From positions 195,457 to 259,456 of the forward strand of contig JBGAFW010000002.1 of the NCBI GenBank assembly GCA_044227045.1: a stretch of 64,000 nucleotides of DNA, read 5' to 3'. The DNA is from Labilithrix sp. GTDB lineage: Bacteria; Myxococcota_A; Polyangia; Polyangiales; Polyangiaceae. Shown piece after piece: positions 7,685-45,775 of this stretch (positions are counted from its first letter, which is position 1; each line of letters opens with the position of its first letter). Made by a program: the position numbers and the translations under genes. The notes beneath the pieces are model-generated. The model was not told the DNA's origin. It did not search any database and worked only from the letters and a program-made list of their open reading frames with translations.

Positions 7685-8071
7685 ATGACCCGTCGCCTCG
7701 CTGCGCTGTGCATCGTGCTCACGATCGCGCTTGGGATCGCGTCGCGAAAGGTTCACCTCGGCGTCTTCGTCTGGGACAAGAGCCTCGGCGACGCGCTCTA
7801 CACGGTGATGATTTACTTCTTCCTCGCGGCGCTTCGACCCCAGACGAGGCCGCAGATGCTCGGCGTCGCTTCGTTCGTCATCTCGTTCGCGATCGAGCTC
7901 TTTCAGCTCACCGGCGTGCCGGAGCGCATGCCATTCCCGATCAACCGGATCCTGGGCACGACGTTCCAGTGGCACGACGTCGCCTGCTATGTCGTGGGCG
8001 CTGGCGTGGTGACCGGTGCCCACGTCGTGGTGGAGAAGAAGACTAGCGCGTCAGGGAAGAACGCGCGTTAG
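7685..8071 (+). CDS. Small integral membrane protein (3-4 TM helices)
   Basis: Hydrophobic segments LAALCIVLTIALGIA, VMIYFFLAAL, VASFVISFAIELF and VACYVVGAGVVTGA. Its stop overlaps the trxA stop tail-to-tail. Confidence 0.5.
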   Translation: MTRRLAALCIVLTIALGIASRKVHLGVFVWDKSLGDALYTVMIYFFLAALRPQTRPQMLGVASFVISFAIELFQLTGVPERMPFPINRILGTTFQWHDVACYVVGAGVVTGAHVVVEKKTSASGKNAR

Positions 8072-8424
8072 ACCGACGCCGAGGCCGAGGCCGCCTCATC
8101 GGGGAGGAGCCGCAGCAGCGTCTCCATCGACGTCGCGCCGGTGTGTCGCTTGTGCTCCTTGCCACCGACGAACGAGATGATCGTCGGAAGCGCACGCACG
8201 CGGTACTGCGCGGCGATCGCGGCGGACTCGTCGGCGTCGATGCGGAGGACGCGGACCTTGCCGCCATGACGCTCGGCGATCTTCTCGATGATGGGCTCGA
8301 GCGCGCGGCACGGGCCGCACCAGTCAGCGCCGAAGTCGAGGAGGACGGGCAGGGGGGACTCCAGCACCTGGGCGGCGAAGTCGGTCTCGGTGATCATGGG
8401 CACGTGTTTCGTGGGTTTGCTCAT
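8068..8424 (-). CDS. trxA: Thioredoxin
   Basis: WCGPC active site. About 110-aa core. Confidence 0.9.
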   Translation of the reverse strand: MSKPTKHVPMITETDFAAQVLESPLPVLLDFGADWCGPCRALEPIIEKIAERHGGKVRVLRIDADESAAIAAQYRVRALPTIISFVGGKEHKRHTGATSMETLLRLLPDEAASASASV

Positions 8425-27585: not shown

Positions 27586-28689
27586 TCACGCATTCGGTGC
27601 GCGTCCGATGGGCTTAGGCAGCGCGCGCTTGCGGCTCCCGAACGCCTTCGCGACCGTCTCGGGCGAAATCCACTCGGCACGCGACCACGACAGGTCACCC
27701 CCATCTGCGCCTTGTTCGCGCGTCAAGATCCACGGCGCGTGGACGAAGTCCTCGACCTCGGCGGTCTCTCCGATCGCCACCTGCCATGGGAGCTCACCCG
27801 TCGCCCACTCGACCTTCGTCGTCGCGCGCTCGGAGAGCCGCGGGTAGGTGAGGTCTTCGTACCGCACCTCGCTCTCCGAGGCGGCAGCTCGACCGGCATC
27901 GATCGGCGTGACGATCGACCAATGCCCGTCGTCGGAGACGACCAGCCAGCGAAGACCTTCGGTCGTGGCGGTCGTGTCGTAGATCAAATACTCGTCCCAC
28001 GTCGACGAGGTGGAGACGTTCCGCCGGCTCACCAAGCCAAGCACGCGACATCGGTCGCCAGGGCGCATCAGCCCCACACCTTCGTCGCCGACGTCCAAGC
28101 ACGGCGGCAACCCCTTCGGACGGGACACGTTCGGCGCCGGATCGAACCGCGGCCATCCTTGCCGTGGACGAAGCCCAAGATCGCCGAGCGTCCGCCGCCG
28201 TCCTTCGAAGACGCGCGGCGTTCGTGCGTCACGATCCCCCTTCGCGCCGTAGTCGATCGACGCGACCACGGCGGGCCGCGTCCGCGACGAGAGGTCCGCG
28301 TAGCGAAACGTCGCGCCGGCCTCGTCGCCTTCGACCTCGCCCCAGCGGGCGACGCGCGTCCCTTCGCCGCGCTCGACCACGACGAAGTCGGTCGCGAGGC
28401 TTACGCCCACCTCGAGATCGTCCCAGGAGGGCGCCAAGGTCGCTTCTTCCATCACCGCGATCGATCCGCCGGGCGCTTCGGCGAGGAAGTAGCGCGGCTC
28501 GTCCTCCGGCACGTCGAGGAAGCGAATCGCCCACTCGTTCGAGATCGCCCCTTTGCGCCCGCGCATGCAGGTGCGGCCCGCGAGGACGAAGGGGCGGCCA
28601 TCGAGCACGCCGCGATCGCCGAGCGTGAGCACGGTCGACTCTTCGAGCCGGCCGGCGATGCCTGTCGCGTTCGACCCCGGACGGTTCAT
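27586..28689 (-). CDS. Hypothetical protein, possibly a tandem DUF4178-like protein (start MNRPGSNATG)
   Basis: Coherent non-Arg-rich composition begins only at MNRPG. Upstream part of the track ORF is an artefact. ATGA overlap with the dipeptidase stop. Confidence 0.45.
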   Translation of the reverse strand: MNRPGSNATGIAGRLEESTVLTLGDRGVLDGRPFVLAGRTCMRGRKGAISNEWAIRFLDVPEDEPRYFLAEAPGGSIAVMEEATLAPSWDDLEVGVSLATDFVVVERGEGTRVARWGEVEGDEAGATFRYADLSSRTRPAVVASIDYGAKGDRDARTPRVFEGRRRTLGDLGLRPRQGWPRFDPAPNVSRPKGLPPCLDVGDEGVGLMRPGDRCRVLGLVSRRNVSTSSTWDEYLIYDTTATTEGLRWLVVSDDGHWSIVTPIDAGRAAASESEVRYEDLTYPRLSERATTKVEWATGELPWQVAIGETAEVEDFVHAPWILTREQGADGGDLSWSRAEWISPETVAKAFGSRKRALPKPIGRAPNA

Positions 28690-29729
28690 GCCTCGGCGAG
28701 CACGCGCATGACGTTGTCGCGAAGGAGCTTGCCGACGGCCTTCTCCGAGAAGCCCGCGTCGAGGAGCGCGTCGGTGAGGAGCGGCAGCCCGCGCGGATCT
28801 TTCAAGGGCTTCGTGGGGATGATGAACCCATCCCAATCGCTTCCGAGCGCAGGGGCATCCTCTCCGACGATGTCGACGATGTGCTTCAAATGGCGAACGA
28901 CCGGCTCCAGGCCATCGCCGCCGACGAACTTCGGGCAGAAGATGACGCCGACGACACCTCCTTTGTCCGCGACCGCACGCAGCTGCTCGTCGTCGATGTT
29001 GCGCCAATGCTCGAACGCGCCGATGACGCCGGTGTGGCTCACGATCGGCGGCTTCTTCGCGACTCGGCACGCATCGAGGAAGCCCTTCTTGTTGATGTGG
29101 GCCAGGTCGACGATGACGTCTTCGGCCTCGCAGCGCTCGACGAGGCCGAAGCCCCATCGGGTGAGCCCGTCGTCGTCGCGCCGGCCGCGGCCGTAGGCGG
29201 GGTAACCCGCTTCGTTCGCGCTGAAGTGGAGGAGGCCGATGTAGCGGACGCCGCGGCGCGCGAAGACGCCGACGTTGTCGAGCGATCCTTCGAGCGCGTG
29301 CGCGCCTTCGATCCCGAGGAGGGCGCCCATGACACCCTCGCGCTTGCATTGCTCGATCTCGTGGGCCTTGCGGACGAGCCGGACCGAGCTCGACTTGTTC
29401 AAGAGCTGCCGGTCGAGCGCGTCGATCTGCTCGTGCACCGTGCGCGCCATGCCCCGCGGTCGATCCGCGAGGGGCAGGGACACGAGGCCGAAGAACTGCG
29501 CGCCCATTCCACCTTCGCGCATCCGCGGGAGGTCGACGTGGCCGCCGAGCGCCGCGAACGGCAGCGGTGGCTCGTGGGCTTTGTGGATGTCGTAGTCGAG
29601 CCAACGCGACCACATGAGCGTGTCGGCATGGAGATCAATCGCCGGATGCTCGGCGTGGATCGCGCGCGCCGCGTCGGAGCCGTGCGTGATCGCGTTCGAG
29701 GTCTTGTTGGGAGAGGAGCTCTGGGTCAT
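28686..29729 (-). CDS. Membrane dipeptidase (peptidase family M19)
   Basis: AIDLHADTL and HFSANEAGYPAYG motifs. Family-typical length. Confidence 0.85.
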   Translation of the reverse strand: MTQSSSPNKTSNAITHGSDAARAIHAEHPAIDLHADTLMWSRWLDYDIHKAHEPPLPFAALGGHVDLPRMREGGMGAQFFGLVSLPLADRPRGMARTVHEQIDALDRQLLNKSSSVRLVRKAHEIEQCKREGVMGALLGIEGAHALEGSLDNVGVFARRGVRYIGLLHFSANEAGYPAYGRGRRDDDGLTRWGFGLVERCEAEDVIVDLAHINKKGFLDACRVAKKPPIVSHTGVIGAFEHWRNIDDEQLRAVADKGGVVGVIFCPKFVGGDGLEPVVRHLKHIVDIVGEDAPALGSDWDGFIIPTKPLKDPRGLPLLTDALLDAGFSEKAVGKLLRDNVMRVLAEA

Positions 29730-29879
29730 GAGGAACGTGAGGACGGGAATTGTCGCTCACATCGAGGCCGCCGGGAGGGGATAGCGAGGGTGCCGCAAGG
29801 AAATCTACGTAATTTTATTGAGTTGACCAAGGTACTTGAGTTTTCCGATGCGACAATTAGATTCCTGGTCGGTCCCTCC

Positions 29880-30332
29880 ATGCTTCGCCTCTCGAACCGC
29901 GGTCGCTACGCCTTGAAGGCGGTCTTCGATCTCGCCGTTCATTCGGAGTCGCCGGTGCAGGTGAAGGACGTCGCCACGCGCCAGAAGATCCCGCTGCGGT
30001 TCCTCGAGCAAATCTTCCAGCTCCTGAAGCGGGCGAACCTCGTCGAGTCGAAGCGCGGACCACGCGGCGGGTTTCTGCTCGCCAAAGAGCCGGATGAAGT
30101 GAAGCTCGGCGACGTCCTCCGCGCGGTCGAAGGCCCGGTCGTGCTCACCGGCAACCAGCGCCAACAGAAGCGGGGCGCGAGCACCGCCGACGTCACCGAC
30201 GCTGTCCTCGCGGACCTCTCGCGCTCGGTCGAGCAATGCTTCGACGGGATCACCCTCCAAGACCTTTGCGCGCGTGGTGAGCGGGTCGCGCTTCAAAAAG
30301 CCCGCAGCGCGGCCACTCCGTACGTTATCTAA
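29880..30332 (+). CDS. Rrf2-family transcriptional regulator (IscR/CymR-like)
   Basis: MLRLSNRGRYALKAVFDLA... N-terminal wHTH typical of Rrf2. 150 aa. Confidence 0.85.
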   Translation: MLRLSNRGRYALKAVFDLAVHSESPVQVKDVATRQKIPLRFLEQIFQLLKRANLVESKRGPRGGFLLAKEPDEVKLGDVLRAVEGPVVLTGNQRQQKRGASTADVTDAVLADLSRSVEQCFDGITLQDLCARGERVALQKARSAATPYVI

Positions 30333-30370
30333 GTCAGCCAGGCCCACTCCAGACAAGACGCCCAGACAAG

Positions 30371-31366
30371 ATGATCGCCGAATCGATGCTCGACCTCGTT
30401 GGACACACGCCGCTCGTGCGTGTCCGCGCGGACTGGCTCAACAACAGCGAAGGCTCGGCGAAGATCTGGGCGAAGATGGAGAACCTGAACCCCGGCGGGA
30501 GCGTCAAGGATCGCATCTGCCGCGCCATGATCGAAGACGCCGAGGCGCGCGGCCTCCTCGTCAAGCCAGGTCCCGTCGTGGAGCCTACGAGCGGCAACAC
30601 CGGCATCGGCCTCGCGCTCGTCTGCGCGGTGAAGGGCTATCGCCTCATCTTGACGATGCCCGAGAGCATGAGCCTCGAGCGCCGTCAGCTCCTCGAGGCG
30701 TACGGCGCGGAGATCGTGCTCACCCCGGCAGACGGGCAGATGGAAGGCGCGATCGAGAAGGCCCGCGAGATCGTCCAGGAGACGCCGGGCGCGTTCATGC
30801 CGCAACAGTTCGAGAGCGCCGCGAATCCCTCCGTGCATGCGCGCACCACCGCCTTCGAGATCCTCCAGGCGATGGACGGCTGCTCGATCGACGCGTTCGT
30901 CGCGGGCGTCGGGACGGGCGGCACCGTCAGCGGCGTGAGCCCGGAGCTTCGGAAGGTTCATCCGCACGTCCGCATCATCGCGGTCGAGCCCGACGCCTGC
31001 GCCACGATCTCGCGCGGGCAGCGCGGGCCGACGAAGATCCAAGGGCTCGCCGCCGGTTTCGTCCCGAAGAACTACGACGCCTCGGTCGTCAACGAGGTGC
31101 GCACCGTCACCGACGACGACGCGTGGCGCACGAAGAACCTCCTCGCCAAGCACGAGGGCTTGCTCGTCGGCATCAGCGCAGGCGCGGCGGTGAACGTCGC
31201 GCTCGACATCGCCCGCGAGCTGCGTGATCCCAAGAAGAACGTCGTCACCGTCCTCTGCGACACAGGCGAGCGCTACTTCAGCCTCGACGAGTATTTCCAG
31301 CACCTCAAGGGCAGCGATCCCGGCTCCACGAACGCCGAGCGCCTTCGCAAGGGGCCGCGTCGATGA
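30371..31366 (+). CDS. cysK: Cysteine synthase A (O-acetylserine sulfhydrylase)
   Basis: PLP-fold motifs NPGGSVKDR, TSGNTGIGLA and GVGTGGT. Confidence 0.9.
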   Translation: MIAESMLDLVGHTPLVRVRADWLNNSEGSAKIWAKMENLNPGGSVKDRICRAMIEDAEARGLLVKPGPVVEPTSGNTGIGLALVCAVKGYRLILTMPESMSLERRQLLEAYGAEIVLTPADGQMEGAIEKAREIVQETPGAFMPQQFESAANPSVHARTTAFEILQAMDGCSIDAFVAGVGTGGTVSGVSPELRKVHPHVRIIAVEPDACATISRGQRGPTKIQGLAAGFVPKNYDASVVNEVRTVTDDDAWRTKNLLAKHEGLLVGISAGAAVNVALDIARELRDPKKNVVTVLCDTGERYFSLDEYFQHLKGSDPGSTNAERLRKGPRR

Positions 31367-32127
31367 GCTCGGGCGATCGTCAGGTGCTCCAGAAGAAGCG
31401 CGTCCTCGTCGTAGGCATTGGTGGCCTCGGATGTCCTGCGGCGATCGTGCTCGCGCGCGCCGGCGTCGGCACGATCGGGATCGCCGACGATGACGACGTC
31501 GATCTCACGAACCTGCATCGCCAGGTGCTGTTCGAAGACGCTGACGTCGGCAAGCCCAAGACCGACGTCGCCGTGACGCGTCTCTCTTCATGGACGGCGG
31601 GCGTCGCCTCGCCGGCGATCGTCCCGCACCGCACACGCCTTCTCCCAACGAACGCGATCGCGCTCGTCCGCGACTACGACCTCGTCGTCGAGGGCAGCGA
31701 CAACTTCGCGACGAAATTCCTCGCCGCCGACGCCTGCGCGATCGCGAACAAGCCGATCGTTCACGCCGCGGCGGTCCGCTGGCATGGCACCGCGCTCGCG
31801 GTCGCTCCGCATGGCGCGCCTTGCTACCGCTGCGTCTTCGAAGACCTGCCGCTCGAGAACCCGCCGAACTGCGCCGAGGCGGGTGTTGTCGGCCCGATGG
31901 TGGGCGTCGTCGCGGCCGCGCAGGCCGATCTCGCGCTCTCGGCGCTCCTCGGTGATGCGAGCGTCTTCGGCGAGCTCTTCACCTTCGACGGCAAGTCGCT
32001 CACCTCGCGGCGAAGGCACGTCGCGAAGCGCTCGACCTGCGCGCTCTGCGGCGACGCAGCCAGCATGGCGCGCATCCAAGACATCAACGAGGCCCGCTAC
32101 GTCGAAGGCATCTGCGCCGCCGGCTAG
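31363..32127 (+). CDS. ThiF/MoeB/MoeZ-type E1-like adenylyltransferase. It lacks the rhodanese domain found in M. tuberculosis MoeZ.
   Basis: Rossmann GIGGLGCPAAIVLARAGVG. Two CxxC pairs (CYRC, CALC). ATGA overlap with the cysK stop. Confidence 0.85.
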   Translation: MSSGDRQVLQKKRVLVVGIGGLGCPAAIVLARAGVGTIGIADDDDVDLTNLHRQVLFEDADVGKPKTDVAVTRLSSWTAGVASPAIVPHRTRLLPTNAIALVRDYDLVVEGSDNFATKFLAADACAIANKPIVHAAAVRWHGTALAVAPHGAPCYRCVFEDLPLENPPNCAEAGVVGPMVGVVAAAQADLALSALLGDASVFGELFTFDGKSLTSRRRHVAKRSTCALCGDAASMARIQDINEARYVEGICAAG

Positions 32128-32184
32128 CCCAACCACCCAACCGATCACGCACGCATTCAGACAGAGGAAAGGAAGACACTCATC

Positions 32185-32457
32185 ATGGACACGATCGTCA
32201 GAATCCCCGCCGCGCTCCGAACGTTGACCGGCGGTGCCGACGAAGTGAAGGCCGCTGGGGGCACGGTCGGCGACGTCATCGAGGATCTCGAGAAGCGTCA
32301 CCCTGGCTTGAAGGACCGCCTCCTCGACGACAAGGGCGTTCGCCGCTTCATCAACATCTACGTCGGCGAAGAAGACGTCCGCTTCACCGGTGGCCTCAAG
32401 ACGGAGCTGAAGTCCGGCGACCAGATCAGCATCATCCCGGCGATCGCGGGCGGCTGA
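32185..32457 (+). CDS. cysO: CysO/ThiS/MoaD-family sulfur carrier protein with a C-terminal Gly-Gly
   Basis: 90 aa. Ends ...IIPAIAGG. Beta-grasp size and composition. Confidence 0.8.
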   Translation: MDTIVRIPAALRTLTGGADEVKAAGGTVGDVIEDLEKRHPGLKDRLLDDKGVRRFINIYVGEEDVRFTGGLKTELKSGDQISIIPAIAGG

Positions 32458-32482
32458 AATAGGGCTCCGCGCCTCGAACGAC

Positions 32483-32791
32483 ATGACCCCCGAACAACGC
32501 CGCCGCTACGGACGCCAAATCCGCCTCGCCGAGATCGGTGAAGCCGGCCAAGCTGCGCTCTGTTCGCTCGAGGTCTCGCTCGCTTCGCGTGGCGAGCATG
32601 CGCGTGCGATCGAGCGGCGCTACCTCGAGGCCGCCGGCGCGCGGGTCGTGGGGACGGGCGATGAGGCTCACGAGATCGTTCCCACGCTCGGCCTCCGGCA
32701 TCCCGAAGCGCGCGAGCTCGCCGAGGGCGCGATGCACGCGCTCGACGCGATTCGCGCCTCTGTGCTCTCGGCGAAGGGCAACGCGCCATGA
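32483..32791 (+). CDS. Truncated ThiF/MoeB-N-terminal-like ORF. It keeps the RYxRQI motif but lacks the GxGxxG nucleotide loop, so it is a possible pseudo-E1 or gene remnant.
   Basis: EQRRRYGRQIRLAEIGEAGQAALCSLEV aligns to the MoeB start RYNRQIILRGFDFDGQEALKDSRV. Stop overlaps the cysM start by 4 nt. Confidence 0.4.
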   Translation: MTPEQRRRYGRQIRLAEIGEAGQAALCSLEVSLASRGEHARAIERRYLEAAGARVVGTGDEAHEIVPTLGLRHPEARELAEGAMHALDAIRASVLSAKGNAP

Positions 32792-33735
32792 GCGGGTGGC
32801 TTCGTGCGCGCCGGATCGAGTCCGTCGTCGAGGCGGTGGGCGACACGCCGCTCCTTCGCCTGCGCCTTGCGATGAAGACAGCGCCGAGCGTGCCGGTGTA
32901 CGCGAAGCTCGAGTTCGAGAACCCCGGCGGCAGCGTCAAAGATCGCGCGGCGCTTCGGATGATTCAAGACGCGATGAAAGACGGGCGCTTGTCGAAGGGC
33001 AAGGTCCTCATCGACTCGACGAGCGGCAACACCGGCGTCGCATACTCGCTCTTCGGCGCCGCGCTTGGCATTCCGGTGAAGCTCGTGATGCCTTCGAACG
33101 TGTCGAAGGCGCGGAAGGACATCGCGCAGGCGTTCGGCACCGAGATCATCTGGTCCGATCCGCTCGAGGGATCCGACGGCGCGATCCGCCTCGCGAAGAA
33201 GATCACCGATGAGGAGCCGGGCCGCTTCTTCTACCCGGATCAGTACTCGAACCCGTCGAACCCCCTCGCGCACTACCACGGCACGGGTCCCGAGATCCTG
33301 CGCGACGTCGGCGATCGCATCACCCACTTCGTGGCCGGCCTCGGGACGAGCGGCACGATGATGGGCACGGCGCGCCGGCTGAAGGAGCACCATCGACCCA
33401 TCCGCTGCGTCGCCGTCGAGCCTGACGGGCCGATGCACGGCTTGGAAGGTCTCAAGCACATGGCGACGAGCCTCGTGCCGGCGATCTACAACCCGCGCAC
33501 GCACGACGAGGTCTTTCCTGTCTCCACCGAAGACGGCTGGGACATGGCCGATCGCCTCGCGCGCGAGGAGGGCCTTCATGTCGGCCACTCGTCGGGCGCG
33601 AACATCTTCTGCGCGGTGAAGATCGCCGAGCGCCTCGAAGCCGAAGGGAAGGCGGGCTGCATCGTCGCGATCGTCGCCGATCGAGGGGACCGCTACTTCT
33701 CACCCCTCCGGTGGGAGAAGAAATACGTGTGGTGA
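32788..33735 (+). CDS. cysM: CysM-type cysteine synthase (CysO-thiocarboxylate-dependent, PLP fold)
   Basis: NPGGSVKDR, STSGNTGVAYS and GLGTSGT motifs. Sits in a cysO/mec context as in M. tuberculosis. Confidence 0.85.
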   Translation: MSGWLRARRIESVVEAVGDTPLLRLRLAMKTAPSVPVYAKLEFENPGGSVKDRAALRMIQDAMKDGRLSKGKVLIDSTSGNTGVAYSLFGAALGIPVKLVMPSNVSKARKDIAQAFGTEIIWSDPLEGSDGAIRLAKKITDEEPGRFFYPDQYSNPSNPLAHYHGTGPEILRDVGDRITHFVAGLGTSGTMMGTARRLKEHHRPIRCVAVEPDGPMHGLEGLKHMATSLVPAIYNPRTHDEVFPVSTEDGWDMADRLAREEGLHVGHSSGANIFCAVKIAERLEAEGKAGCIVAIVADRGDRYFSPLRWEKKYVW

Positions 33736-33745
33736 GGAGAGGGTC

Positions 33746-34267
33746 ATGAGTGGTGACGAGAAGAAGCATCCCTGGATCCGCGGGTCGCTGCGCATCGCCA
33801 AAGCGGTGATCGATCGGGTCGATGAAGAGGCGCGCGCCGCCTTCGGGCGCGACGAAGAGAGCTGTGGGCTCTTGATCGGACCTGCGGGCGATCCGCTCTT
33901 CGTCGACGAGATCGTCACGATGGAGAATCGCGCGAACAAGCTCCATCGCCTCGACCCCGAGACCTACCCTCGCACGGGCAGGATGTACTTCGATATCGAT
34001 CCGATGAAGTTCGAGCGTGCCGTCCTTGCCGGCGAGTCGTCGGGGCGTCCGGTGAAGGTGCTCTACCATTCGCATCTCGACGTCGGCGCGTACTTCTCGG
34101 ACACGGACGCCGCGGCCGCGACGATGGGCGGCGACGCGCCCACGTACGACCTCGCGTACCTCGTCACCTCGGTGCGTGCGGGCGTCGTCGACGACCGTAA
34201 GCTCTTCATCTGGGACGGCGACACGCGACGCTTCGTCGAGACGAGCCTCGAGATCGCGACCGCCTAG
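33746..34267 (+). CDS. mec: JAMM/MPN+ metalloprotease (Mec+-like CysO-cysteine isopeptidase)
   Basis: JAMM motif HSHLDVGAYFSDTD (HxHx7SxxD). Upstream E (EESCGLL). Confidence 0.85.
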   Translation: MSGDEKKHPWIRGSLRIAKAVIDRVDEEARAAFGRDEESCGLLIGPAGDPLFVDEIVTMENRANKLHRLDPETYPRTGRMYFDIDPMKFERAVLAGESSGRPVKVLYHSHLDVGAYFSDTDAAAATMGGDAPTYDLAYLVTSVRAGVVDDRKLFIWDGDTRRFVETSLEIATA

Positions 34268-34332: not shown

Positions 34333-35691
34333 ATGACCGCTTCCATGGGGTCGTCTCCGTCATCCACCACGAACGTCGCCGCACGAGGCTTTGGCGTTCT
34401 GCTCGGCATGAGCGTCGCGCTCTCGTGCTCGCTCGTGGCGCGGGAAGCGCACGCCGACAACGCACGTGAGATCGCCGGCCGCGTGAACGAGCAGTGGCGC
34501 GTGGCGGGCGCGCGATCGATTCAGATCCCGACGCGGTTCTTGTTCGACGAGGAGACCGCGCTGATCGCGATCCCGCCGGACGAGACGGAGAAGGATGGAG
34601 ACTGCACGCAGATCGCGGTCATCGGATCACGCGGGCTCAGCTTCCGCGCGCGCCTCTCCGACGCGCCGGTGGATCCGCTGCTCCCGCCCGAGCCGGGCGC
34701 GCGAGGCTCGAGCACGGCGGGTGTCCTCGAGCTGCGACGCTGCGAGCGCGGCCGGCCGTCGATCCGTCACGTCATCATCACCGCCGAGGCAGGCCGCGGC
34801 GCCGTCGAGGTCGTGGTCGGGCGATCGCCCTCCCCACTGCCGTCGCTCGGATCGATCATCCCCGAGCGAACGGGCGGCGCGATCCCTCCGCCGCCCGAGG
34901 CCGGGCCGCTCCCTCCGCTCACGCCGCAAGACAAGCGCGCCGAGTCGGCGGAGGCTCGCGCTCGTCGTGACGGCGCCAACGTCCGCGCTCGCGTCAGCAC
35001 ACGCGCCGGCGACGATGGCTCGGGCGACGAAGAGCTCGAGCTCGACGAGGGGTGCCATCGGATCGAGGTGTTCGGCAAGGAGATGATGCGCGAGCGACCT
35101 GGGCGGCGCTTTCGCCTCGACGTCGACGCCGAGCTTCGCGACGGCGATCATCTCATCGCGCGCGACCGCACCGAGGCGCCGGACGCAAGGCTCGAGACGT
35201 GCGTGGGCGCGCCGACGAAGCTCACGCTTCTCTACTCCGGCACGCCGCCCCATACGGAGGTGGTCGTCACGCGCGGAAGCTGGCCGCTGCCGGCGCGCCT
35301 GCCGCCGATCTGGGGACCCACCGTGCGCAGCAAGATGGCGCGCGTGATGTTCCTCCGCCACGTCGCGGTGCCCTCCGAAGATCCCGTGTATCTTGCACAA
35401 GGTTCCGCCGGCACGACGCCGGTGCCGCTGTCGGTCGAGACCGGCGGCTGCTACGTCGCCGTCGTCGGGATCACTCACGGCCAACGCCTGCGCCAGCTCC
35501 AGCTTCGCGCGATCGTCGGCGCGCGCGAGTCGACCGACGAGCGAGGCGCGGCCGAAGAAGCGGCGCTCTCCGCGTTCTGCGTTCGCGCGCACGAGTCGGC
35601 GCGCGTCGAGGTGCTCGCGCGCGGAACGGGCATCAGCTGGGGCCTCGCGCTGTTTCGCATCAAGAGCGGCCTCTGGGAGCCGGGGCGATGA
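34333..35691 (+). CDS. Secreted hypothetical protein with repeated Cys-anchored beta-type modules
   Basis: Signal peptide (MSVALSCSLVAREAHA). Internal modules CTQIAVIGSRG, CHRIEVFGKE and CYVAVVGITHG. Confidence 0.55.
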   Translation: MTASMGSSPSSTTNVAARGFGVLLGMSVALSCSLVAREAHADNAREIAGRVNEQWRVAGARSIQIPTRFLFDEETALIAIPPDETEKDGDCTQIAVIGSRGLSFRARLSDAPVDPLLPPEPGARGSSTAGVLELRRCERGRPSIRHVIITAEAGRGAVEVVVGRSPSPLPSLGSIIPERTGGAIPPPPEAGPLPPLTPQDKRAESAEARARRDGANVRARVSTRAGDDGSGDEELELDEGCHRIEVFGKEMMRERPGRRFRLDVDAELRDGDHLIARDRTEAPDARLETCVGAPTKLTLLYSGTPPHTEVVVTRGSWPLPARLPPIWGPTVRSKMARVMFLRHVAVPSEDPVYLAQGSAGTTPVPLSVETGGCYVAVVGITHGQRLRQLQLRAIVGARESTDERGAAEEAALSAFCVRAHESARVEVLARGTGISWGLALFRIKSGLWEPGR

Positions 35692-37376
35692 AGACGATCG
35701 CGCCTCTGCCCGTGATCGGGACGCTCGCCGCTCTCGCGATGGCGTCGGCGTGTGGTCCGCGTGCGCAGCCCGCCACGATGCCGCCGCCGACGGTGAACGA
35801 CCCACCGCGCGTGACGCCCGGGCCTCTCGAGGCGCGCCCGCTGCTCTCCGATTTGCCGGCGAAGGCGTCCCGCTTCGGCGCAGGTCCCGTCGCGATCGTC
35901 GCCGCGAGCCCGATGTCCGAAGGCGAGCGCGTCGGCGCGTTCGTCGACGTGCCGAAGGACGCGTGCCTGCTCGCCTATGCGCGATCGTCGGCGTCGCTCG
36001 AAGACATCGATCTCGCGGCGTTCGCCGAAGAAGGCAACCCCGTCGCTGTCGATGAGGGACCCGATCCACGTCCCACGATCCTGATCTGTCCGCCGCATCC
36101 AGACCGCGTGTACGTCGCCGCGCACGCCGCCGCGGGCGAAGGCCTCTGCGTGATCGCCGCGCAGCTCGTACCGCGAGACCGCGCCGAAGCCGTCGGGCGC
36201 GCGGTCGGAGCGCATGGCTCGACGCCGCGGTCCCCCGAGACATGGCCAGGCCTCGACGATCACGTCCGCAATCACCGCGCCGCGATCGGCGGCACGTGGG
36301 AAGAGCAGAGGCGCGTCGCCGTCGCGGTCGACTCGCGCGCTCCGTCGATCGTGGGGCTCACGATCGAGGAGGGGAGCTGCACGGACGCGCTCGTCGTGCC
36401 CGATGACGACGTCTCCGTGATCGACGTCGATGTGCTCGACGGCGAAGGGCGCCTCGTCGCGCGCGCGAAGGACACTTCGGCCATTCGATCGATCACGATC
36501 TGCTCGCAAGTCGCCGTCTCGGGATCGCTCCAGGTGCGACCGCACGTGGGTCGCGGCCTCGTCGCCGTCGTCGTCTCGAAGGCCAAGGCCGAGAGCACGC
36601 GCGAGATGCTCACCCGTCCCGAGGTCGCGTGGGTCGCGTCCGGGCTGCCGCTCGACTCGCAGCGCAACGCGCGCGAGAAGGCGCTCGGGAAAGCCGGCTA
36701 CGCGGGACCGTCCGCGAGCCAGACGGGCCAGCTCCAGCTCGGCCGCCGCGCGACCGTACCGGTCGATCTCGGCGCGGGACCGTGCGCACGCGTCGATGTC
36801 GTCGCCGGCGCTCCGCTCGCGCTCGTCGAAGCGGCGATCTGGGATGACAGCGGCGCTCTGCTCGCGAACGGCGACGGCGCGGACGGCGCTGTGCTCTTCG
36901 CGTGCGGCAAGGGCAAGGCGCGCGTCGATCTCGGCACGCGTGGCCGGCCTGGACCGTTCGCCGTCCTCGTCCGCCAGGAGAAGTGGAAGGACCCTGCGTT
37001 CTCGGCGCATCCGCTCGCCGCGAGCCGCATGCTGTCGCGCTCCTCGGGACCGGCGAGCGCGCCGCACGAAGGCAAGCCTGGCGCGGTGAAGCACGCCGTC
37101 CTCGAGCCGGCGAAGCGATACATGCATGATGCAAATATCGCCGCCGGCCAGTGTCTCCGCGTCTCCGCGGGCGTGGAGGGCGAAGGCACGGGCCTCGAGC
37201 TTCGGATGTGGGACGCGGTGACCGGCGAGGAGCTCGATCGATCGCACGGCCAGTTCTCGGCGAGCGTCCGCGCATGCACGGCATCCGCGGCGCGCTCGGT
37301 CCGAGTCGAGGCGCGCGCGTCCGCCGGCAAGCTCGACGCCGTCCTCGGCGAACGCCTGGTCAACGCGAAGGAGTGA
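35688..37376 (+). CDS. Lipoprotein paralogue of the preceding gene (about 5 repeated C-x-x-[LV]-x-V modules)
   Basis: Lipobox AMASAC. ATGA overlap with the preceding gene. The track ORF starting at 35052 has an artefactual N-terminal extension. Confidence 0.55.
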   Translation: MKTIAPLPVIGTLAALAMASACGPRAQPATMPPPTVNDPPRVTPGPLEARPLLSDLPAKASRFGAGPVAIVAASPMSEGERVGAFVDVPKDACLLAYARSSASLEDIDLAAFAEEGNPVAVDEGPDPRPTILICPPHPDRVYVAAHAAAGEGLCVIAAQLVPRDRAEAVGRAVGAHGSTPRSPETWPGLDDHVRNHRAAIGGTWEEQRRVAVAVDSRAPSIVGLTIEEGSCTDALVVPDDDVSVIDVDVLDGEGRLVARAKDTSAIRSITICSQVAVSGSLQVRPHVGRGLVAVVVSKAKAESTREMLTRPEVAWVASGLPLDSQRNAREKALGKAGYAGPSASQTGQLQLGRRATVPVDLGAGPCARVDVVAGAPLALVEAAIWDDSGALLANGDGADGAVLFACGKGKARVDLGTRGRPGPFAVLVRQEKWKDPAFSAHPLAASRMLSRSSGPASAPHEGKPGAVKHAVLEPAKRYMHDANIAAGQCLRVSAGVEGEGTGLELRMWDAVTGEELDRSHGQFSASVRACTASAARSVRVEARASAGKLDAVLGERLVNAKE

Positions 37377-41256: not shown

Positions 41257-44200
41257 CTACGGCTCGACGAGCGTGACGTTGCCCTCGACGGTCTTGCTCG
41301 CGCGCGTCGACTGGCGCCACCACGCAGCGACCTTGCTCTCGCCCGGGACGAACTGCGGGAACGCGACCCAGCGGTTGTCCTGACCCGTCACGGTGCGGAG
41401 ATCCCACTTGTGCGAGGTGGGTGAGCTGCCGGTCCCGACGGCCTTGCGGAGGCCGAGCGAGGAGGAGTCGGCGTAGTAGATCGTCACGACGTCGCCGTCG
41501 ACGCGAATGACGGAGTCGTCGCCGACGATGTGCTTGCCGTCGGGGAACGTCTTGCCGTCGACGGTCGAGCCGTCATCGACGACCTCGGACTTGCCGGGCT
41601 TGCCGTCGTTCACCGCGATGTAGCGGAGCGACTCGTCGAGGCCGTTGACGTAGCTCACGTGCCACGTGCCGGTGCTCGCGATCGCGAGCGACGCTGCGAT
41701 GCCGACGTCGCCGGTGTCGATCGCCGTCTTGTCCTCGCGCTTGCCGGTCTCGCCGTCGAGGATGACGCGCTCCCACGGGATCGCGCCTCGATCGAGGAAG
41801 CCGATCAGGTTGCCGTGGTAGCCGTCGTACGCGACGAGGCCGAGGCCCTTCGGCCCGGTGGCGATGCTGATGAACGCGCCGAGCGCGCTCGGGTAGGTCT
41901 CGATCGCGCCTTGTTTGGCGAGGCAGGTGGCCTTGTTGTCCTTCGTGACGCAGGCCTGGCTGTCGGTGCATGCGGGCGCGCAGCCGCCGATGGTCTTCGT
42001 GCAGATGCCGGTCTCCTTGATGCACGCGTCGCCGCCGGTGCAGCTGTTCGCGCGGCAGGGCCCGTCTTCGTCGACCGCGATGTCTTCGAACCCGAAGTCT
42101 TCTGCGCCTTGCGGCTTGTCGGTCTTCGCGCGTGCGAGGACGATCTTCGAGCGCGTGCGGCCGCCGTTTCCCGGCTCGATGTGCATGTACGCGATGACCG
42201 GCTTGCCATCGACGAGCACCATCTTGCCGTATTTGCCGATGTCGGCGCCGGCTTGCTCTTTGAGGACGGAGATCTTCCAGCCGTCGTCCTTCGTCTTCAC
42301 CGCGAGCTTCAGGCGGTGGTTCGTGTCGTCGTAGTAGCTCACCATCGGCAGATCGTCTTTGTCGAGCTGGATCGAGGTGTAGCGGCCGACGTTGTCACCC
42401 GAGTCGACTTCGCCCTTGCGCCAGCCATACGGCTCGTAGCCGGGGCACGTGCCGTCGGTGCGTGCCGGGATGCCGTCGACGGTCTCCCAATCGACCTCTT
42501 TCTTGCCGAGGTCGTACTTGCCGACGACGAGGTCGCCCCAGAGGAGCGAGTCGCCTTCGGAGAGCATCGAGTCGTTGTAACCGGCCGCCCAGATCGTCCC
42601 GTCCTTCGCCTTCGCGACGGAGAGGTACGCGCCGGGCTGACCATGGCCGAGGCCCGTCGAGCACGGCTGGTTGCAGTCGGAGCCGCATCCGGTCTGCGGA
42701 TCCGCTTCGCTTCCGCAGGCGCAGCCTTGGCTCGTCGCGGCGACGGCGCTGATCGCGCCGATGGCGAGGCCAGCGCGCGTGGCGATGCCGCGCCATGACG
42801 ACGGCGTGGAGGAGGCGATGACGTCGCCGCTGCGACGCGAGCGACGTGCGAGCACGATCGCGAGCGCGCCGAGGCCGACGAGGACCGCGACGAGGCCGCC
42901 GTTGTCGCTCGTGCCCGGCGTCGAGCAGCCGCAGCCGGAGCCCGCCGCCGCGATCGTCGGATCCGCCGCGCCGCGAAGCGCCTGGCGAACCGTGCCGATG
43001 TTTCCTTCTTCGTCTTTGACCTCGACGTTCACCGAGGCCGCGTTCGGGGCCTCGATGCGCGCGAGCTCGCTGAGGCTCTTCCACTCGCTCCACGCCTGGT
43101 TGTCGACCTGGTAGCGCGCGGTGAGGGCCTCGGGCTTCGAGACGATGTCCCACGCCTTCAGCGTGAGCGCGCGGCTGTCGTGCGGATCCTTCTCGAGCTT
43201 CACGAACGGCGCGAGCGCGTCGATGACGTACTCGATGTCGGCGGGCGTGCCGTCCTCGGTGTTCGGCTGACCCACGACGCGCGCGGCGGTGTGGAGCGTG
43301 TGCTTGCCTTGGACGAAGAGCTGATCGTCCTTGATGACGATGTGCTTCTCGGTCGACCACGGCGAGCGCGTGCCGCTGTCGATCCACCACGAGTACTCGA
43401 CGGGGTGAACGGTGTCGCCGTCGAGCGACGACGACAGCTCGACCTCGAGCTCGGGGAGCTTGTCGGCTTCGTAGGTCCACGCCTGGAGGTGATCCTTCCA
43501 GACCTTCTTGCCGAGGAGCTTCGCGCGGGTGTCGACCTCGATCGACGCGGTGCTCGCCTTCGAGAGCGTCGAGAAGATGCCGACGAAGTCATCGGTGTCC
43601 TTCGTGAGCTTCTTGATCTCGTTGACCTCGAGGCTGAGGCCGAGGCTCGCGACCGCGCCGGAGATGTCGATCGGCGAGAAGCCGCCGCCGACGAGCTGCT
43701 TCGACACGGTGCCGAAGATGCCGCTGACGGCGCCCGCGACCACGTCCGGGTTGTCCATGAGGAGGATGTCGGCGTTCGAGATCTTGCCGTTCGTGACCTT
43801 GATCTCGCCGAGCGACGGCACGAGCCCGCCGTTCGGGTTGCTTGGGCCCTTCGCTGTTTGGAGCGTGACGGGGATCGTCAGGTCGCCCGTGTACGTGAAG
43901 ACGCGCGCGAAGCGATCGAAGCTCCAGATGTAGAAGTCGATCGCGAGCTCGGGGATCGTCACCATCAAGAGCGGGTCGGTGTTCTTGTCGTTGCCAGTGC
44001 CGATCTTCACCTGCGGCGGCTTCTGCGGGCGCGTCGCGATCGCCGCGGCGGCGTCGGACTGCTCGAACGTGAGCGACTTCAACGACGGGATGAGGAGCGA
44101 GAGGAGACCGCTCTTCAACATGTCGAACTGCTCGGTCGACACGCCGAGGCACAAGAGGCCGCTGTTGTAGACGCTGGTGAACGAGTAATCGAGGAAGCGG

Positions 44201-45489
44201 CCCGAGAGCGCGATACCCACGTGGGGCGCGCCCGCGGCCTCGGCGGCCTTCGGCGCGAGCTCGTCGGGGATCGGGATGCCGGTCGGGGGCGTGACGGGCT
44301 TCTGGACGACGCACTTCGACGTCGGTTGCGGGAGGACGCCGCCGACCATGCCGAGCGTGACGCCGTTCTTCGTGCGCCCCGACGCCTCGGCGTTGAGGTT
44401 CGGGTGCGGCTGCATCGCGCCGAACGAGCCGATGCCGAAGTCGACGCCGCCCGCCGTGCTCGGCGAGAACGACTTCAAGAGGCCGCCGAGCTCGACGTGC
44501 GAGTCGGTGCCGAGGAGCATCGGGACGCACTTCGCCTTGTCGGTGTCGTAGACGCAGTGCTTGTTCTCGGCGTCGGGGCTCGTGTCCGTCGGGCACGACG
44601 GGTTCAGCGTGGGGATCGGCTTCGTGCAGAGCTGGTCTTTGAGGAGGCTCCGAACCTGATCGGTGAGGCCCTTCTTGAGCGGGTCGACGACGAGGCCCTT
44701 CACGAAGCCGGAGTTCGTGATCGCGCTGCACACGTCGGTGGCGAAGCCGCACGACGAGCAGACCTTCACGTCATCGGACGAGAGGCCGGAGAGATCGATG
44801 TCGGCGTTGTCGATGTCGATCTTCGTGTAGCCGGTGCGCGGGGCCGTGGTCTCCGCGACGAGCGGGATCGTGATCCCGATCGGGAGCGCCTTCGGCGTGA
44901 CGTTGGGCTTGCCGTCGCTGCATCCGCCGTTGCCGTAGCCGATGTGGAGCGTGATCGAGCCGATGTCGAACGTGCCGCCGACGATCGGGTCGCCTTTGAT
45001 CGTCGCCTCGATCGGGGTGTCTTCGAGCTCGAGGGGAATCGTCGCGATGACCTTGATCGCGTTCGGCTTCACCGAGTCGATCTGGAACGTCGACTTGCCG
45101 ATGCCGACGCCTGCGTGGCACTTCGGCGGGGTCGCCGCCGGGTTCGGACCGCCAGGGCACACGTTGGGGTCGAGGAGGATCTTGCCGATGCCGAGGTTCG
45201 CGATCTGCGAGCTCGGAGGATCGATCGCGGGGATGTCGAAGCCGAGCGTGCCGTTCGGCGCGTTCGTGAGCTTCGTCGCGATGGCGGGCAGCTCCTTCTC
45301 GATGAAATCGAGGCCGGGTCGCGAGACGCGAACCGACGCTGCGTTCTCGACGGCCTTGTCCGTCGGGAAGCCACCCGGCAGCGGGGTCATCCCCGCGCAG
45401 CCACCGCAACCACCGCATCCGCCGCCGCTACACGAAGCGATCAGCAGAAAGAAGACGACGCCAAAGACATGGCGGAAACGTGAAAGCAT
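41257..45489 (-). CDS. Giant secreted lipoprotein ORF. As sequenced it fuses (A) an N-terminal ~880-aa lipoprotein ending in a MYXO-CTERM-like sorting motif to (B) a ~520-aa beta-propeller-type lipoprotein with its own signal peptide. Probably two genes (A about 42834-45489, B about 41257-42822).
   Basis: N-terminal lipobox FLLIASCSGG. Internal GSGCGCSTPGTSDNGGLVAVLVGLGALAIVLARRSRRS (MYXO-CTERM tripartite pattern) at about 42834-42944. It is immediately followed by RGIATRAGLAIGAISAVAATSQGCACG (lipoprotein signal). No in-frame stop lies between the two. Confidence 0.6.
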   Translation of the reverse strand: MLSRFRHVFGVVFFLLIASCSGGGCGGCGGCAGMTPLPGGFPTDKAVENAASVRVSRPGLDFIEKELPAIATKLTNAPNGTLGFDIPAIDPPSSQIANLGIGKILLDPNVCPGGPNPAATPPKCHAGVGIGKSTFQIDSVKPNAIKVIATIPLELEDTPIEATIKGDPIVGGTFDIGSITLHIGYGNGGCSDGKPNVTPKALPIGITIPLVAETTAPRTGYTKIDIDNADIDLSGLSSDDVKVCSSCGFATDVCSAITNSGFVKGLVVDPLKKGLTDQVRSLLKDQLCTKPIPTLNPSCPTDTSPDAENKHCVYDTDKAKCVPMLLGTDSHVELGGLLKSFSPSTAGGVDFGIGSFGAMQPHPNLNAEASGRTKNGVTLGMVGGVLPQPTSKCVVQKPVTPPTGIPIPDELAPKAAEAAGAPHVGIALSGRFLDYSFTSVYNSGLLCLGVSTEQFDMLKSGLLSLLIPSLKSLTFEQSDAAAAIATRPQKPPQVKIGTGNDKNTDPLLMVTIPELAIDFYIWSFDRFARVFTYTGDLTIPVTLQTAKGPSNPNGGLVPSLGEIKVTNGKISNADILLMDNPDVVAGAVSGIFGTVSKQLVGGGFSPIDISGAVASLGLSLEVNEIKKLTKDTDDFVGIFSTLSKASTASIEVDTRAKLLGKKVWKDHLQAWTYEADKLPELEVELSSSLDGDTVHPVEYSWWIDSGTRSPWSTEKHIVIKDDQLFVQGKHTLHTAARVVGQPNTEDGTPADIEYVIDALAPFVKLEKDPHDSRALTLKAWDIVSKPEALTARYQVDNQAWSEWKSLSELARIEAPNAASVNVEVKDEEGNIGTVRQALRGAADPTIAAAGSGCGCSTPGTSDNGGLVAVLVGLGALAIVLARRSRRSGDVIASSTPSSWRGIATRAGLAIGAISAVAATSQGCACGSEADPQTGCGSDCNQPCSTGLGHGQPGAYLSVAKAKDGTIWAAGYNDSMLSEGDSLLWGDLVVGKYDLGKKEVDWETVDGIPARTDGTCPGYEPYGWRKGEVDSGDNVGRYTSIQLDKDDLPMVSYYDDTNHRLKLAVKTKDDGWKISVLKEQAGADIGKYGKMVLVDGKPVIAYMHIEPGNGGRTRSKIVLARAKTDKPQGAEDFGFEDIAVDEDGPCRANSCTGGDACIKETGICTKTIGGCAPACTDSQACVTKDNKATCLAKQGAIETYPSALGAFISIATGPKGLGLVAYDGYHGNLIGFLDRGAIPWERVILDGETGKREDKTAIDTGDVGIAASLAIASTGTWHVSYVNGLDESLRYIAVNDGKPGKSEVVDDGSTVDGKTFPDGKHIVGDDSVIRVDGDVVTIYYADSSSLGLRKAVGTGSSPTSHKWDLRTVTGQDNRWVAFPQFVPGESKVAAWWRQSTRASKTVEGNVTLVEP

Positions 45490-45775
45490 GAACTTCCTCC
45501 TCCTCGTGACCGCGCCAGCTCTCAAGCAAAGTCTAGCGGTCGCCTCGCGAGAGCCCGGCAAGGTCTCGATCAAAGCGCCTCGCGACCTATCCACATCGTG
45601 ACAGATGCGCGAGCAATCACCACTCCCAACACGACCCGAACGAGGGGCCGAAAATCATGACGATTTCGGCGTCCTCAACCCAAAAGAGGCCTTACCACGG
45701 GAGGCGTGGCCGATTTCCGGAAATCGTGCGCTGTGGCTCCTCATGAGACGGAGCCTTGATGCACAGCGTCAACGG

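Follow-up and report, generated by a model that had tools for sequence, protein, structure and literature searches.

A seven-gene operon on the plus strand of a 64,000-nucleotide stretch of DNA from Labilithrix sp. (contig JBGAFW010000002.1, positions 195,457 to 259,456; the whole stretch is referred to below as the window) is the subject of this analysis. On the basis of homology and synteny, its products include an ordinary CysK, the sulfur carrier CysO with a Gly-Gly terminus, a CysO-linked CysM, and a JAMM metallopeptidase with an intact metal site. They are accompanied by an Rrf2-family regulator, a ThiF/MoeB-type activating enzyme (E1), and a small protein of 102 residues, hereafter called the mini-protein. 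As described below, the E1 is truncated at its N-terminus and lacks the two helices that provide an arginine finger in related enzymes, and a motif of precisely this type is found in the mini-protein. Gene families were called by profile searches against Pfam and NCBIfam, and structural relatives were identified through sequence matches in the Protein Data Bank (PDB). The features of the locus are listed in Table 1. The G+C content of the window is 64-71%. All seven open reading frames proposed in a preliminary description of this DNA were found where it had placed them, on the plus strand, and each of its family assignments was upheld by the profile searches. The two four-nucleotide ATGA overlaps that it had reported, one between cysK and the E1 gene and the other between the mini-protein gene and cysM, are likewise present in the sequence.

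Table 1 Features of the cysteine operon and its immediate surroundings (positions in the window; PLP, pyridoxal 5'-phosphate)
Feature	Position	Strand	Remarks
DUF4178 protein	27586..28689	-	Pfam DUF4178, 1.2e-13; downstream of the M19 dipeptidase gene and co-oriented with it
M19 membrane-type dipeptidase	28686..29729	-	Pfam Peptidase_M19, 1.1e-77; divergent from the cysteine operon
Candidate operator half GCGACAATT	29748..29756	-	Near the start of the M19 gene
Promoter/operator-like block CTTGAGTTTTCCGATGCGACAATTAGAT	29832..29866	+	Upstream of Rrf2; conserved; holds the second GCGACAATT at 29850-29858
Rrf2-family regulator	29880..30332	+	Pfam Rrf2, 6.5e-36; ends in -PYVI
CysK, O-acetylserine sulfhydrylase A	30371..31366	+	TIGR01139 cysK, 381 bits (cut-off 351)
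ThiF/MoeB-type E1 core, 254 residues	31363..32127	+	Pfam ThiF, 5.8e-62; single domain
CysO β-grasp sulfur carrier, 90 residues, C-terminal Gly-Gly	32185..32457	+	Pfam ThiS, 3.2e-17
Mini-protein, 102 residues	32483..32791	+	Without a Pfam match; weak NCBIfam MoeB match, 3e-5 (E1 N-terminus)
CysM-type PLP sulfhydrylase	32788..33735	+	Pfam PALP, 1.2e-60
JAMM/MPN+ metallopeptidase, Mec+-like	33746..34267	+	Pfam Prok-JAB, 4.6e-11

The order of these genes, namely that for the M19 dipeptidase on the minus strand followed by those for Rrf2, CysK, E1, CysO, the mini-protein, CysM, and the JAMM peptidase, recurs in 10 further loci from metagenome-assembled genomes (MAGs) of Polyangia, which are labelled Myxococcales, Polyangiaceae, Sandaracinus, or Labilithrix. 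The arrangement is thus not due to chance. Amino acid sequence identities between the proteins of the window and those of the other loci range from 38 to 92%. Rrf2 or other members are missing in some cases; Rrf2 is lacking in loci L007, L083, and L084, and locus L002 contains the genes for the M19 dipeptidase, the E1, and the mini-protein only. The M19 dipeptidase is a conserved divergent neighbor in L002, L003, L004, L007, and L083-L085. As a guess, it may salvage Cys-Gly or other cysteine-containing dipeptides.

The thiocarboxylate pathway that employs CysO and CysM is textbook knowledge for mycobacteria. If the Mycobacterium tuberculosis paradigm applies to the window, the E1 would adenylate the C-terminus of CysO, which would then be converted to a thiocarboxylate. 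CysM would add the CysO thiocarboxylate to an activated serine, either O-phosphoserine or O-acetylserine, and after an S-to-N shift the JAMM peptidase would free cysteine and regenerate CysO. The mechanism of the M. tuberculosis pathway is summarized in PMC3227635. With respect to the individual components, the carrier ends in AIAGG, and its matches in the PDB are to 4n6e_B (6.3e-28) and to M. tuberculosis CysO, 3dwg_C (4.8e-24). The β-grasp fold foreseen for the 90-residue protein is thereby borne out, given how closely its sequence is related to those of two CysO proteins of solved structure. The JAMM motif is complete in the translation, where it reads EESCG...HSHLDVGAYFSDTD and corresponds to the pattern E..CG...HxHx7Sx2D (here HSHx7Sx2D). 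The CysM gene lies 330 nucleotides downstream of cysO. Its product terminates in ..KYVW, as compared with ..QLWA in M. tuberculosis CysM and ..VWW or ..TLW in other CysO-linked enzymes, those of actinobacteria. In M. tuberculosis, the CysM tail guards the aminoacrylate. The nearest relatives of the window CysM outside of the Polyangia, which are found in loci L010 (51% identity) and L082 (47% identity), both lie beside CysO and an E1. The linkage and the tail together support a carrier-dependent CysM, in keeping with the preliminary description, which had expected CysO-linked features at the C-terminus. Of the profile models, those for CysM come nearest to the window enzyme, but a match of 320 bits to TIGR01138 falls under the cut-off of 394, and the window enzyme is thus not an equivalog of the Escherichia coli-type CysM.

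Several results run counter to a strict M. tuberculosis-type pathway. Among PDB sequences, the window CysM matches E. coli CysM with an E-value of 3.4e-63 and M. tuberculosis CysM with one of 1.3e-57. In addition, the position of Arg220 in M. tuberculosis CysM, which we take to be the O-phosphoserine specificity residue, is occupied by a lysine in the window enzyme (EGLKHM). The M. tuberculosis sequence used for this alignment was a 100% match to 3dwg_A. A lysine is also present at this position in the CysO-linked enzymes of L010, L082, and L011 (taken together, from Anaerolineae, Vicinamibacteria, and Sandaracinus), an arginine is found in the actinobacterial CysO-linked enzymes and in E. coli CysM, and a glutamine is observed in the window CysK. 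Finally, a Pfam scan of ∼50 open reading frames in the 64-kb window, picked by codon-position GC, revealed no serine-phosphate genes and no gene for a rhodanese, a cysteine desulfurase, CysE, or sulfate assimilation/reduction. The view that the locus reproduces the CysO-CysM-Mec+ route of M. tuberculosis is accordingly sound for the carrier, for the linked CysM with its Trp-containing tail, and for the intact JAMM peptidase, but it is only a possibility at the level of the substrate, where a lysine replaces Arg220. Assignment of CysO, CysM, and the JAMM peptidase to a thiocarboxylate pathway for cysteine is nonetheless made with considerable confidence.

In M. tuberculosis, the gene for MoeZ, which functions with CysO, CysM, and Mec+, is said to be unlinked. 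The two systems are alike in having related Gly-Gly carriers, an adjacent PLP-dependent sulfhydrylase with a Trp-containing tail, and an intact JAMM peptidase encoded in the same operon. The Polyangia operon differs in that it encodes its own E1, which is devoid of both a rhodanese domain and the arginine-finger helices, and in that it contains the additional mini-protein, co-encoded CysK and Rrf2 proteins, and the lysine for Arg220 in CysM. It has neither the ClpS nor the helical protein found in the actinobacterial type of operon (PMC1779556, row 4d).

A closer look at the E1 reveals where it departs from related enzymes. The Pfam ThiF match begins at profile position 14, and when twelve canonical E1 domains are aligned with it, the window protein is seen to begin only after the segment L-T-x-E-Q-x-x-R-Y-S-R-H-x-x-L-P-E-V-G-E. 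In ThiF and MoeB, Arg11 and Arg14, respectively, serve as fingers that reach in from the neighboring subunit to contact the γ-phosphate of ATP (PMC13139853). The R[YFHW]xRQ motif of such RYxRQ helices was observed in none of the 123 closest homologues of the window E1, which are 63-100% identical to it and in which the GxGGxG sequence is located at residues 5-26. Likewise, the in-frame sequence 5' of the P-loop supplies no finger motif in any of the 11 loci for which DNA was at hand. This in-frame upstream sequence of the E1 overlaps cysK in another frame. A regular-expression match in L083 was rejected as a finger motif, for it falls within the out-of-frame CysK overlap. The catalytic motifs, on the other hand, are all present in the window protein (GIGGLG, NLHRQ, GKPK, DNF, CYRC, CALC, and NCAEAGV), and they represent the P-loop, the equivalents of Arg73, Lys86, and Asp130, the two CxxC zinc motifs, and the crossover-loop cysteine. 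Within the clade, the P-loop is kept in 119 of 120 members, NLxRQ in 116, DNF in all 120, the two CxxC motifs in 119 and 120, and the crossover-loop cysteine in 117; GxPK is retained in 82 of the 120. In contrast, the E1s of E1-CysO-CysM clusters from other phyla contain RYSR[HQ] 27-28 residues before the P-loop, preceded by what appears to be the end of a rhodanese-like domain. The Polyangia E1 is an enzyme without a rhodanese domain and without the two N-terminal arginine-finger helices.

At their C-termini, too, the truncated E1s have a tail in common, ..IQDIEPRRYVEG(V/I)C, which is conserved and contains a cysteine near the terminus (positions 32080-32127 in the window, and in the homologues). 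It is similar to the ..IDYEEFC sequence with which E1s of the rhodanese type terminate. One possibility for the near-terminal cysteine is a persulfide relay.

Residues 1-52 of the mini-protein align to residues 1-54 of canonical E1s (hhalign, probability 97.7%, E 1.6e-12). Four elements can be distinguished in the polypeptide chain: the arginine-finger motif itself (RRYGRQIRLAEIGEAGQ), a β-α-β unit that is degenerate and lacks the P-loop, a linker that varies, and a C-terminal helix that is conserved. In keeping with this description, the AlphaFold2 model, a confident one, displays an α-β-α-β-linker-α topology (predicted local distance difference test score 81.6; predicted template modeling score 0.69). 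A Foldseek comparison of the model against the PDB returned nothing at E<=0.001, and structural searches with it yielded generic Rossmann fragments only. At the level of sequence, homologues with 42-52% identity were found, and 186 clusters at 50% identity were recovered at E<=1e-10 when 1.84 billion representatives were searched with the profile. Among the 150 matches listed, most are 85-145 residues in length (range 77-211), and nearly all cover almost the whole profile.

Conservation within this family was computed over 153 representatives, and the best-conserved part is the finger helix. Specifically, Arg8 is kept in 85%, Arg11 in 96%, and Gln12 in 93% of the members, Gly19, Gly22, and Gln23 in 98-99%, and Arg14, Leu15, and Glu17 are also among the best-conserved residues. 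A second tier is formed by Tyr47, Leu48, Ala51, and Gly52, and the sequence G82-A83-x-x-A86-L87 of the C-terminal helix is conserved as well. The GxGGxG motif is missing from 148 of the 153. The linker between the conserved blocks varies in length, with all insertions and deletions in frame. In the same pairs of genomes, ratios of nonsynonymous to synonymous substitution rates (dN/dS) amount to 0.32-0.67 for the mini-protein and to 0-0.30 for CysO; the mini-protein is under purifying selection that is more relaxed than that on its neighbors. It had been labelled a degenerate E1-like reading frame. Whereas homology to the E1 N-terminus is confirmed, the term degenerate is not apt for a conserved family that carries the very motif missing from the E1. 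Judged by homology, the mini-protein is a vestigial E1 paralogue and belongs to a previously unnamed family of small proteins.

One member of the family, P0267 (211 residues), is the sole fusion of CysO with a mini-protein. Its ThiS region spans residues 5-90 and closes with AIAGG; the sequence that comes next is RYSRQIRLAEVG, and the region leads without a break into RGRYSRQIRLAEVG. The fusion may be real, in which case the JAMM peptidase must cleave it, or it may have arisen through an assembly frameshift or other artefact.

As can be seen from the gene neighborhoods, truncated E1s and mini-proteins occur together. A mini-protein accompanies the truncated E1 in 11 of 11 loci, and it is absent from all 11 clusters from other phyla in which a full-length rhodanese-E1 is encoded with CysO and CysM. 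In L002 (positions 4573-5666), the E1 gene is followed directly by that for the mini-protein beside the M19 dipeptidase gene, and there are no CysK, CysO, CysM, or JAMM genes between or upstream of them. This arrangement, which is probably repeated on the P0141 contig, ties the mini-protein to the E1. Such a pair may also act on carriers whose genes lie at other sites.

From this complementarity, a model can be drawn in which the mini-protein would bind to the truncated E1 and provide the arginine finger in trans, thereby giving rise to a heteromeric E1. A two-part E1 of this kind is advanced tentatively, as a serious possibility that falls somewhat short of being probable. In its fuller form, which is offered with still more caution, the proposal holds that the mini-protein may be an indispensable subunit of a heteromeric bacterial E1 of the ThiF/MoeB type, that is to say, a minimal, inactive adenylation domain consisting of the finger helices and a docking module that would complete the active site. 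There is precedent for such a division of labor. In the yeast Tcd1-Tcd2 enzyme, it is Tcd1, itself inactive, that contributes its Arg59 to the active site of Tcd2 (PMC13139853). Indeed, in the heteromeric ThiF-fold enzymes, including Tcd1-Tcd2, APPBP1-UBA3, and SAE1-UBA2, it is a degenerate paralogue unable to bind ATP that carries the finger (PMC13139853). The mini-protein likewise has no P-loop and retains the finger, and the Polyangia E1 is the reverse. Tcd1 and the eukaryotic partners are full domains, however, whereas the mini-protein, at ∼100 residues, is a fragment of an adenylation domain. The Polyangia pair is, moreover, bacterial and concerned with sulfur transfer, and the complex is predicted here from sequence. 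In the literature searched, no account was found of an E1 that is truncated at its N-terminus and accompanied by an arginine-finger mini-protein with a gene of its own.

A number of observations speak against such a complex. The support for it is of a single kind, namely co-occurrence (11/11 versus 0/11). In most loci, the mini-protein is translationally coupled to cysM and not to the E1. Its C-terminal helix, when compared with E1 sequences by hhalign, falls best on the G..QA.EA.K.LG helix that follows the crossover loop, with a probability of just 4%. Furthermore, MoeB and ThiF are reported not to require the arginine finger for catalysis, and E. coli TcdA does not have one (PMC13139853), such that the truncated E1 may work alone. 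The enzyme might then be a self-sufficient homodimer, with the mini-protein assisting CysM or CysO as a chaperone or adaptor, regulating E1 dimerization by competition, or serving as a scaffold for the transfer of the CysO thiocarboxylate (CysO-COSH) to CysM. The four-nucleotide overlap with cysM, which is found in the window and in all full loci, would fit such roles, as would the existence of the CysO fusion in P0267 and the much faster evolution of the mini-protein relative to its neighbors. What a self-sufficient E1 leaves unexplained is why the best-conserved part of the mini-protein should be the finger motif (R-x-x-R-Q-x-R-L-x-E-x-G-x-x-G-Q), why its distribution is perfectly complementary to that of the E1 N-terminus, and why it stays beside the E1 in L002 with neither CysO nor CysM between them. 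We consider this alternative rather unlikely. A third view, that the mini-protein is a functionless, decaying remnant of a full-length E1 that once stood between cysO and cysM, is highly improbable. It is true that the same slot is held by the rhodanese-E1 in the Anaerolineae locus L010, that the P-loop and most of the domain have been lost, and that the G+C content at third codon positions is atypical (0.79 versus 0.86-0.90 for the neighboring genes). Codon-position GC cannot tell the frame of the mini-protein from the antisense frame, and it is from homology and conservation that the frame is called as coding. Against a remnant, the frame, the start right after cysO, and the four-nucleotide overlap with cysM have been kept from Sandaracinus to Labilithrix-like loci. 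A decaying remnant is also difficult to reconcile with 186 clusters of full-length proteins with near-invariant residues, with linker insertions and deletions that are all in frame, and with dN/dS values below 1.

The other matter to be weighed is whether the carrier, the E1, and the JAMM peptidase are devoted to cysteine. They might function mainly in ubiquitin-like conjugation of the SAMP or TtuB type, or they might supply sulfur for a thiosugar, thioquinolobactin, or pyridine-2,6-dithiocarboxylate (PDTC)-type metabolite. CysO-type carriers occur in secondary metabolism as well, and the best PDB match of the window carrier, 4n6e_B, is titled only 'ThiS/MoaD family protein'; we take 4n6e to be a 2-thiosugar synthase complex. 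The NCBIfam SAMP1 model gives 59.1 bits, just below its cut-off of 60, the best NCBIfam match of the JAMM peptidase is a weak one to desampylase, and in L002 the E1 and the mini-protein occur without cys genes. Against these points stands the position of CysO between two cysteine synthases, in company with a CymR-like regulator and a dipeptidase, in the window and in 10 further loci. The C-terminal Trp tail of the CysM is of the CysO-linked kind, and genes of an E2-like, siderophore, or sugar type are missing from the Pfam-scanned open reading frames flanking the operon. A primary role outside of cysteine biosynthesis is therefore regarded as improbable.

The source of the sulfur had been considered puzzling, given an E1 without a rhodanese domain. 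A ThiF domain is indeed the only one found in the window protein, but the gap need not be perplexing: E. coli MoeB, which also lacks a rhodanese domain, uses IscS/YnjE in trans (PMC3227635). The sulfur would come from outside of the window, as free sulfide, from a desulfurase, or through a separate rhodanese-E1 paralogue such as that found in a related MAG. In MAG GFS_14252, a protein encoded at L039:1712-2902 contains an N-terminal rhodanese domain (Pfam, 1.7e-17) and a complete ThiF domain (9.2e-82) with its own RYSRH finger. The same MAG holds cluster locus L007, which means that genomes with a truncated E1 can also carry a canonical rhodanese-E1, and the latter is a candidate sulfur donor.

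The regulator encoded at the head of the operon contains only two cysteines, which are not in the IscR arrangement, and its C-terminus (positions 30321-30332) ends in -PYVI. A terminal [Y/W/F]-x-Ile sequence is present in all 120 of the homologues retrieved (P0289-P0408, 51-100% identity), with the tail that precedes it variable in length. The three-residue ends are distributed as YVI (77), WVI (31), WTI (6), YAI (3), FII (2), and YSI (1). None of the 120 contains the CX5-6CX5-6C motif for Fe-S ligands. In the preliminary description, the protein was referred to as CymR/IscR-like; the invariant isoleucine tail agrees with the first half of that label, and the absence of Fe-S ligands contradicts the second. 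The C-terminal isoleucines of CymR and of CysE are known to insert into the active site of CysK, and CymR from Staphylococcus aureus ends in ..GYMFYI (bioRxiv 10.1101/2024.09.19.614015). Like the CymR-CysK pairs of Bacillus and Staphylococcus, the window encodes a cluster-less Rrf2 protein with an aromatic-x-Ile tail, and its rrf2 gene adjoins cysK. With this tail, and with cysK as the next gene downstream, the regulator is best read as a CymR-like switch that depends on CysK, and docking of the regulator on CysK is judged to be probable from the sequences. By this mechanism, the cluster-less Rrf2 would dock its [Y/W/F]-x-Ile tail into the active site of CysK, as does CymR, and the level of O-acetylserine would determine, through sites containing GCGACAATT, how strongly the operon and the divergent M19 dipeptidase gene are repressed. 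The profile scores are less favorable to this reading. The protein gives 80.4 bits with the CymR model NF047409 (cut-off 195) and is not a CymR equivalog; with the IscR model TIGR02010 it gives 106.9 bits (cut-off 207.6), and IscR models thus outscore CymR. It differs from the known CymR proteins, then, in not being an NCBIfam equivalog and in its origin from the Myxococcota, and both CysK binding and the operator are predictions in this case. A homologue from Labilithrix luteola is annotated as 'IscR', probably wrongly.

With regard to the operator, just two copies of the nine-nucleotide sequence GCGACAATT are present in the 64-kb window, and they are inverted within the same intergenic region, one by each of the divergent genes. 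At least two copies anywhere in the window were obtained in 6 of 100 shuffles. In a comparison of orthologous intergenic regions, the block CTTGAGTTTTCCGATGCGACAATTAGAT was found to be conserved in L003, L004, L085, L007, and L011, where it lies upstream of Rrf2 or, when Rrf2 is absent, of CysK. A simple scan of the operon region for the sigma-70 consensus gave no promoter match, the conserved block included. The GCGACAATT pair is put forward as a candidate operator. Searches of the window for Rfam families and for tRNAs were negative; the lack of an Rfam match indicates that there is no riboswitch leader. Taken as a whole, the picture of one operon with two routes to cysteine, a CymR-like switch, and a two-part E1 is one that we favor by a slight degree.

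Neither the pathway nor the class of operon is new. A combination of ThiS/MoaD, E1-rhodanese, JAB, and cysteine synthase genes was listed as operon class 4c in the comparative genomics study of Iyer, Burroughs & Aravind 2006 (PMC1779556, Table 1), and the Polyangia locus, which has the core gene set in common with it, only widens the range. E1-CysO-CysM clusters were recovered here from Gaiellaceae, other Actinomycetota, Anaerolineae, and Vicinamibacteria. The E1 of class 4c forms a fusion with a rhodanese domain and has its own RYSR[HQ] finger, whereas the Polyangia E1 is without both, and the finger motif resides on a separate protein of 85-145 residues.

Several additional features of the window deserve mention. 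Directly 3' of the JAMM gene, two proteins of 452 and ∼562 residues without a Pfam family are encoded on the plus strand (34333-35691 and 35688-37376). Genes of similar size, also without a Pfam family, follow the JAMM gene in L083, L084, L085, and on the P0141 contig, the likeness being one of size and position only. On the opposite side of the operon, the DUF4178 neighbor is found in L083, L084, and the P0141 contig as well, and a spermine-synthase-like gene lies nearby in L002 and L085. Farther away, an open reading frame of 1445 residues on the minus strand (41257-45594) has a third-position G+C content of 0.92 and no Pfam match. A protein of 1262 residues (2286-6074, plus strand) has as its sole Pfam match a pyridine nucleotide-disulphide oxidoreductase domain at residues 473-825. 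With an Fe(2+)-trafficking protein and a thioredoxin encoded close by (8068-8424, minus strand), this forms a redox-looking neighborhood 20 kb upstream of the operon. Finally, the segment 14992-18419 on the minus strand encodes, by Pfam domain, a class-I glutamine amidotransferase, a member of glycosyl transferase family 3, and an indole-3-glycerol phosphate synthase. These genes of the tryptophan-biosynthesis type are adjoined by one for a recombinase of the phage-integrase family (XerC/D-like).

The invariant tail of the Rrf2 proteins suggests that the regulation of cysteine metabolism by docking on CysK is not confined to the Firmicutes, and it flags a probable systematic misannotation of such regulators as IscR, as in L. 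luteola. The main significance of the locus, however, lies in the splitting of E1 function, which spans a clade of abundant soil bacteria. If the two-part E1 is correct, it would provide a natural and genetically separable system in which the contribution of the finger to MoeB/ThiF enzymes could be examined, and it would assign a function to a widespread, unannotated family of small proteins with more than 180 clusters at 50% identity. It would also represent a prokaryotic, sulfur-transfer counterpart of the split between inactive and active subunits in eukaryotic E1s and in Tcd1-Tcd2, and it would illustrate the way in which E1s can become asymmetric, with one of their subunits dead.

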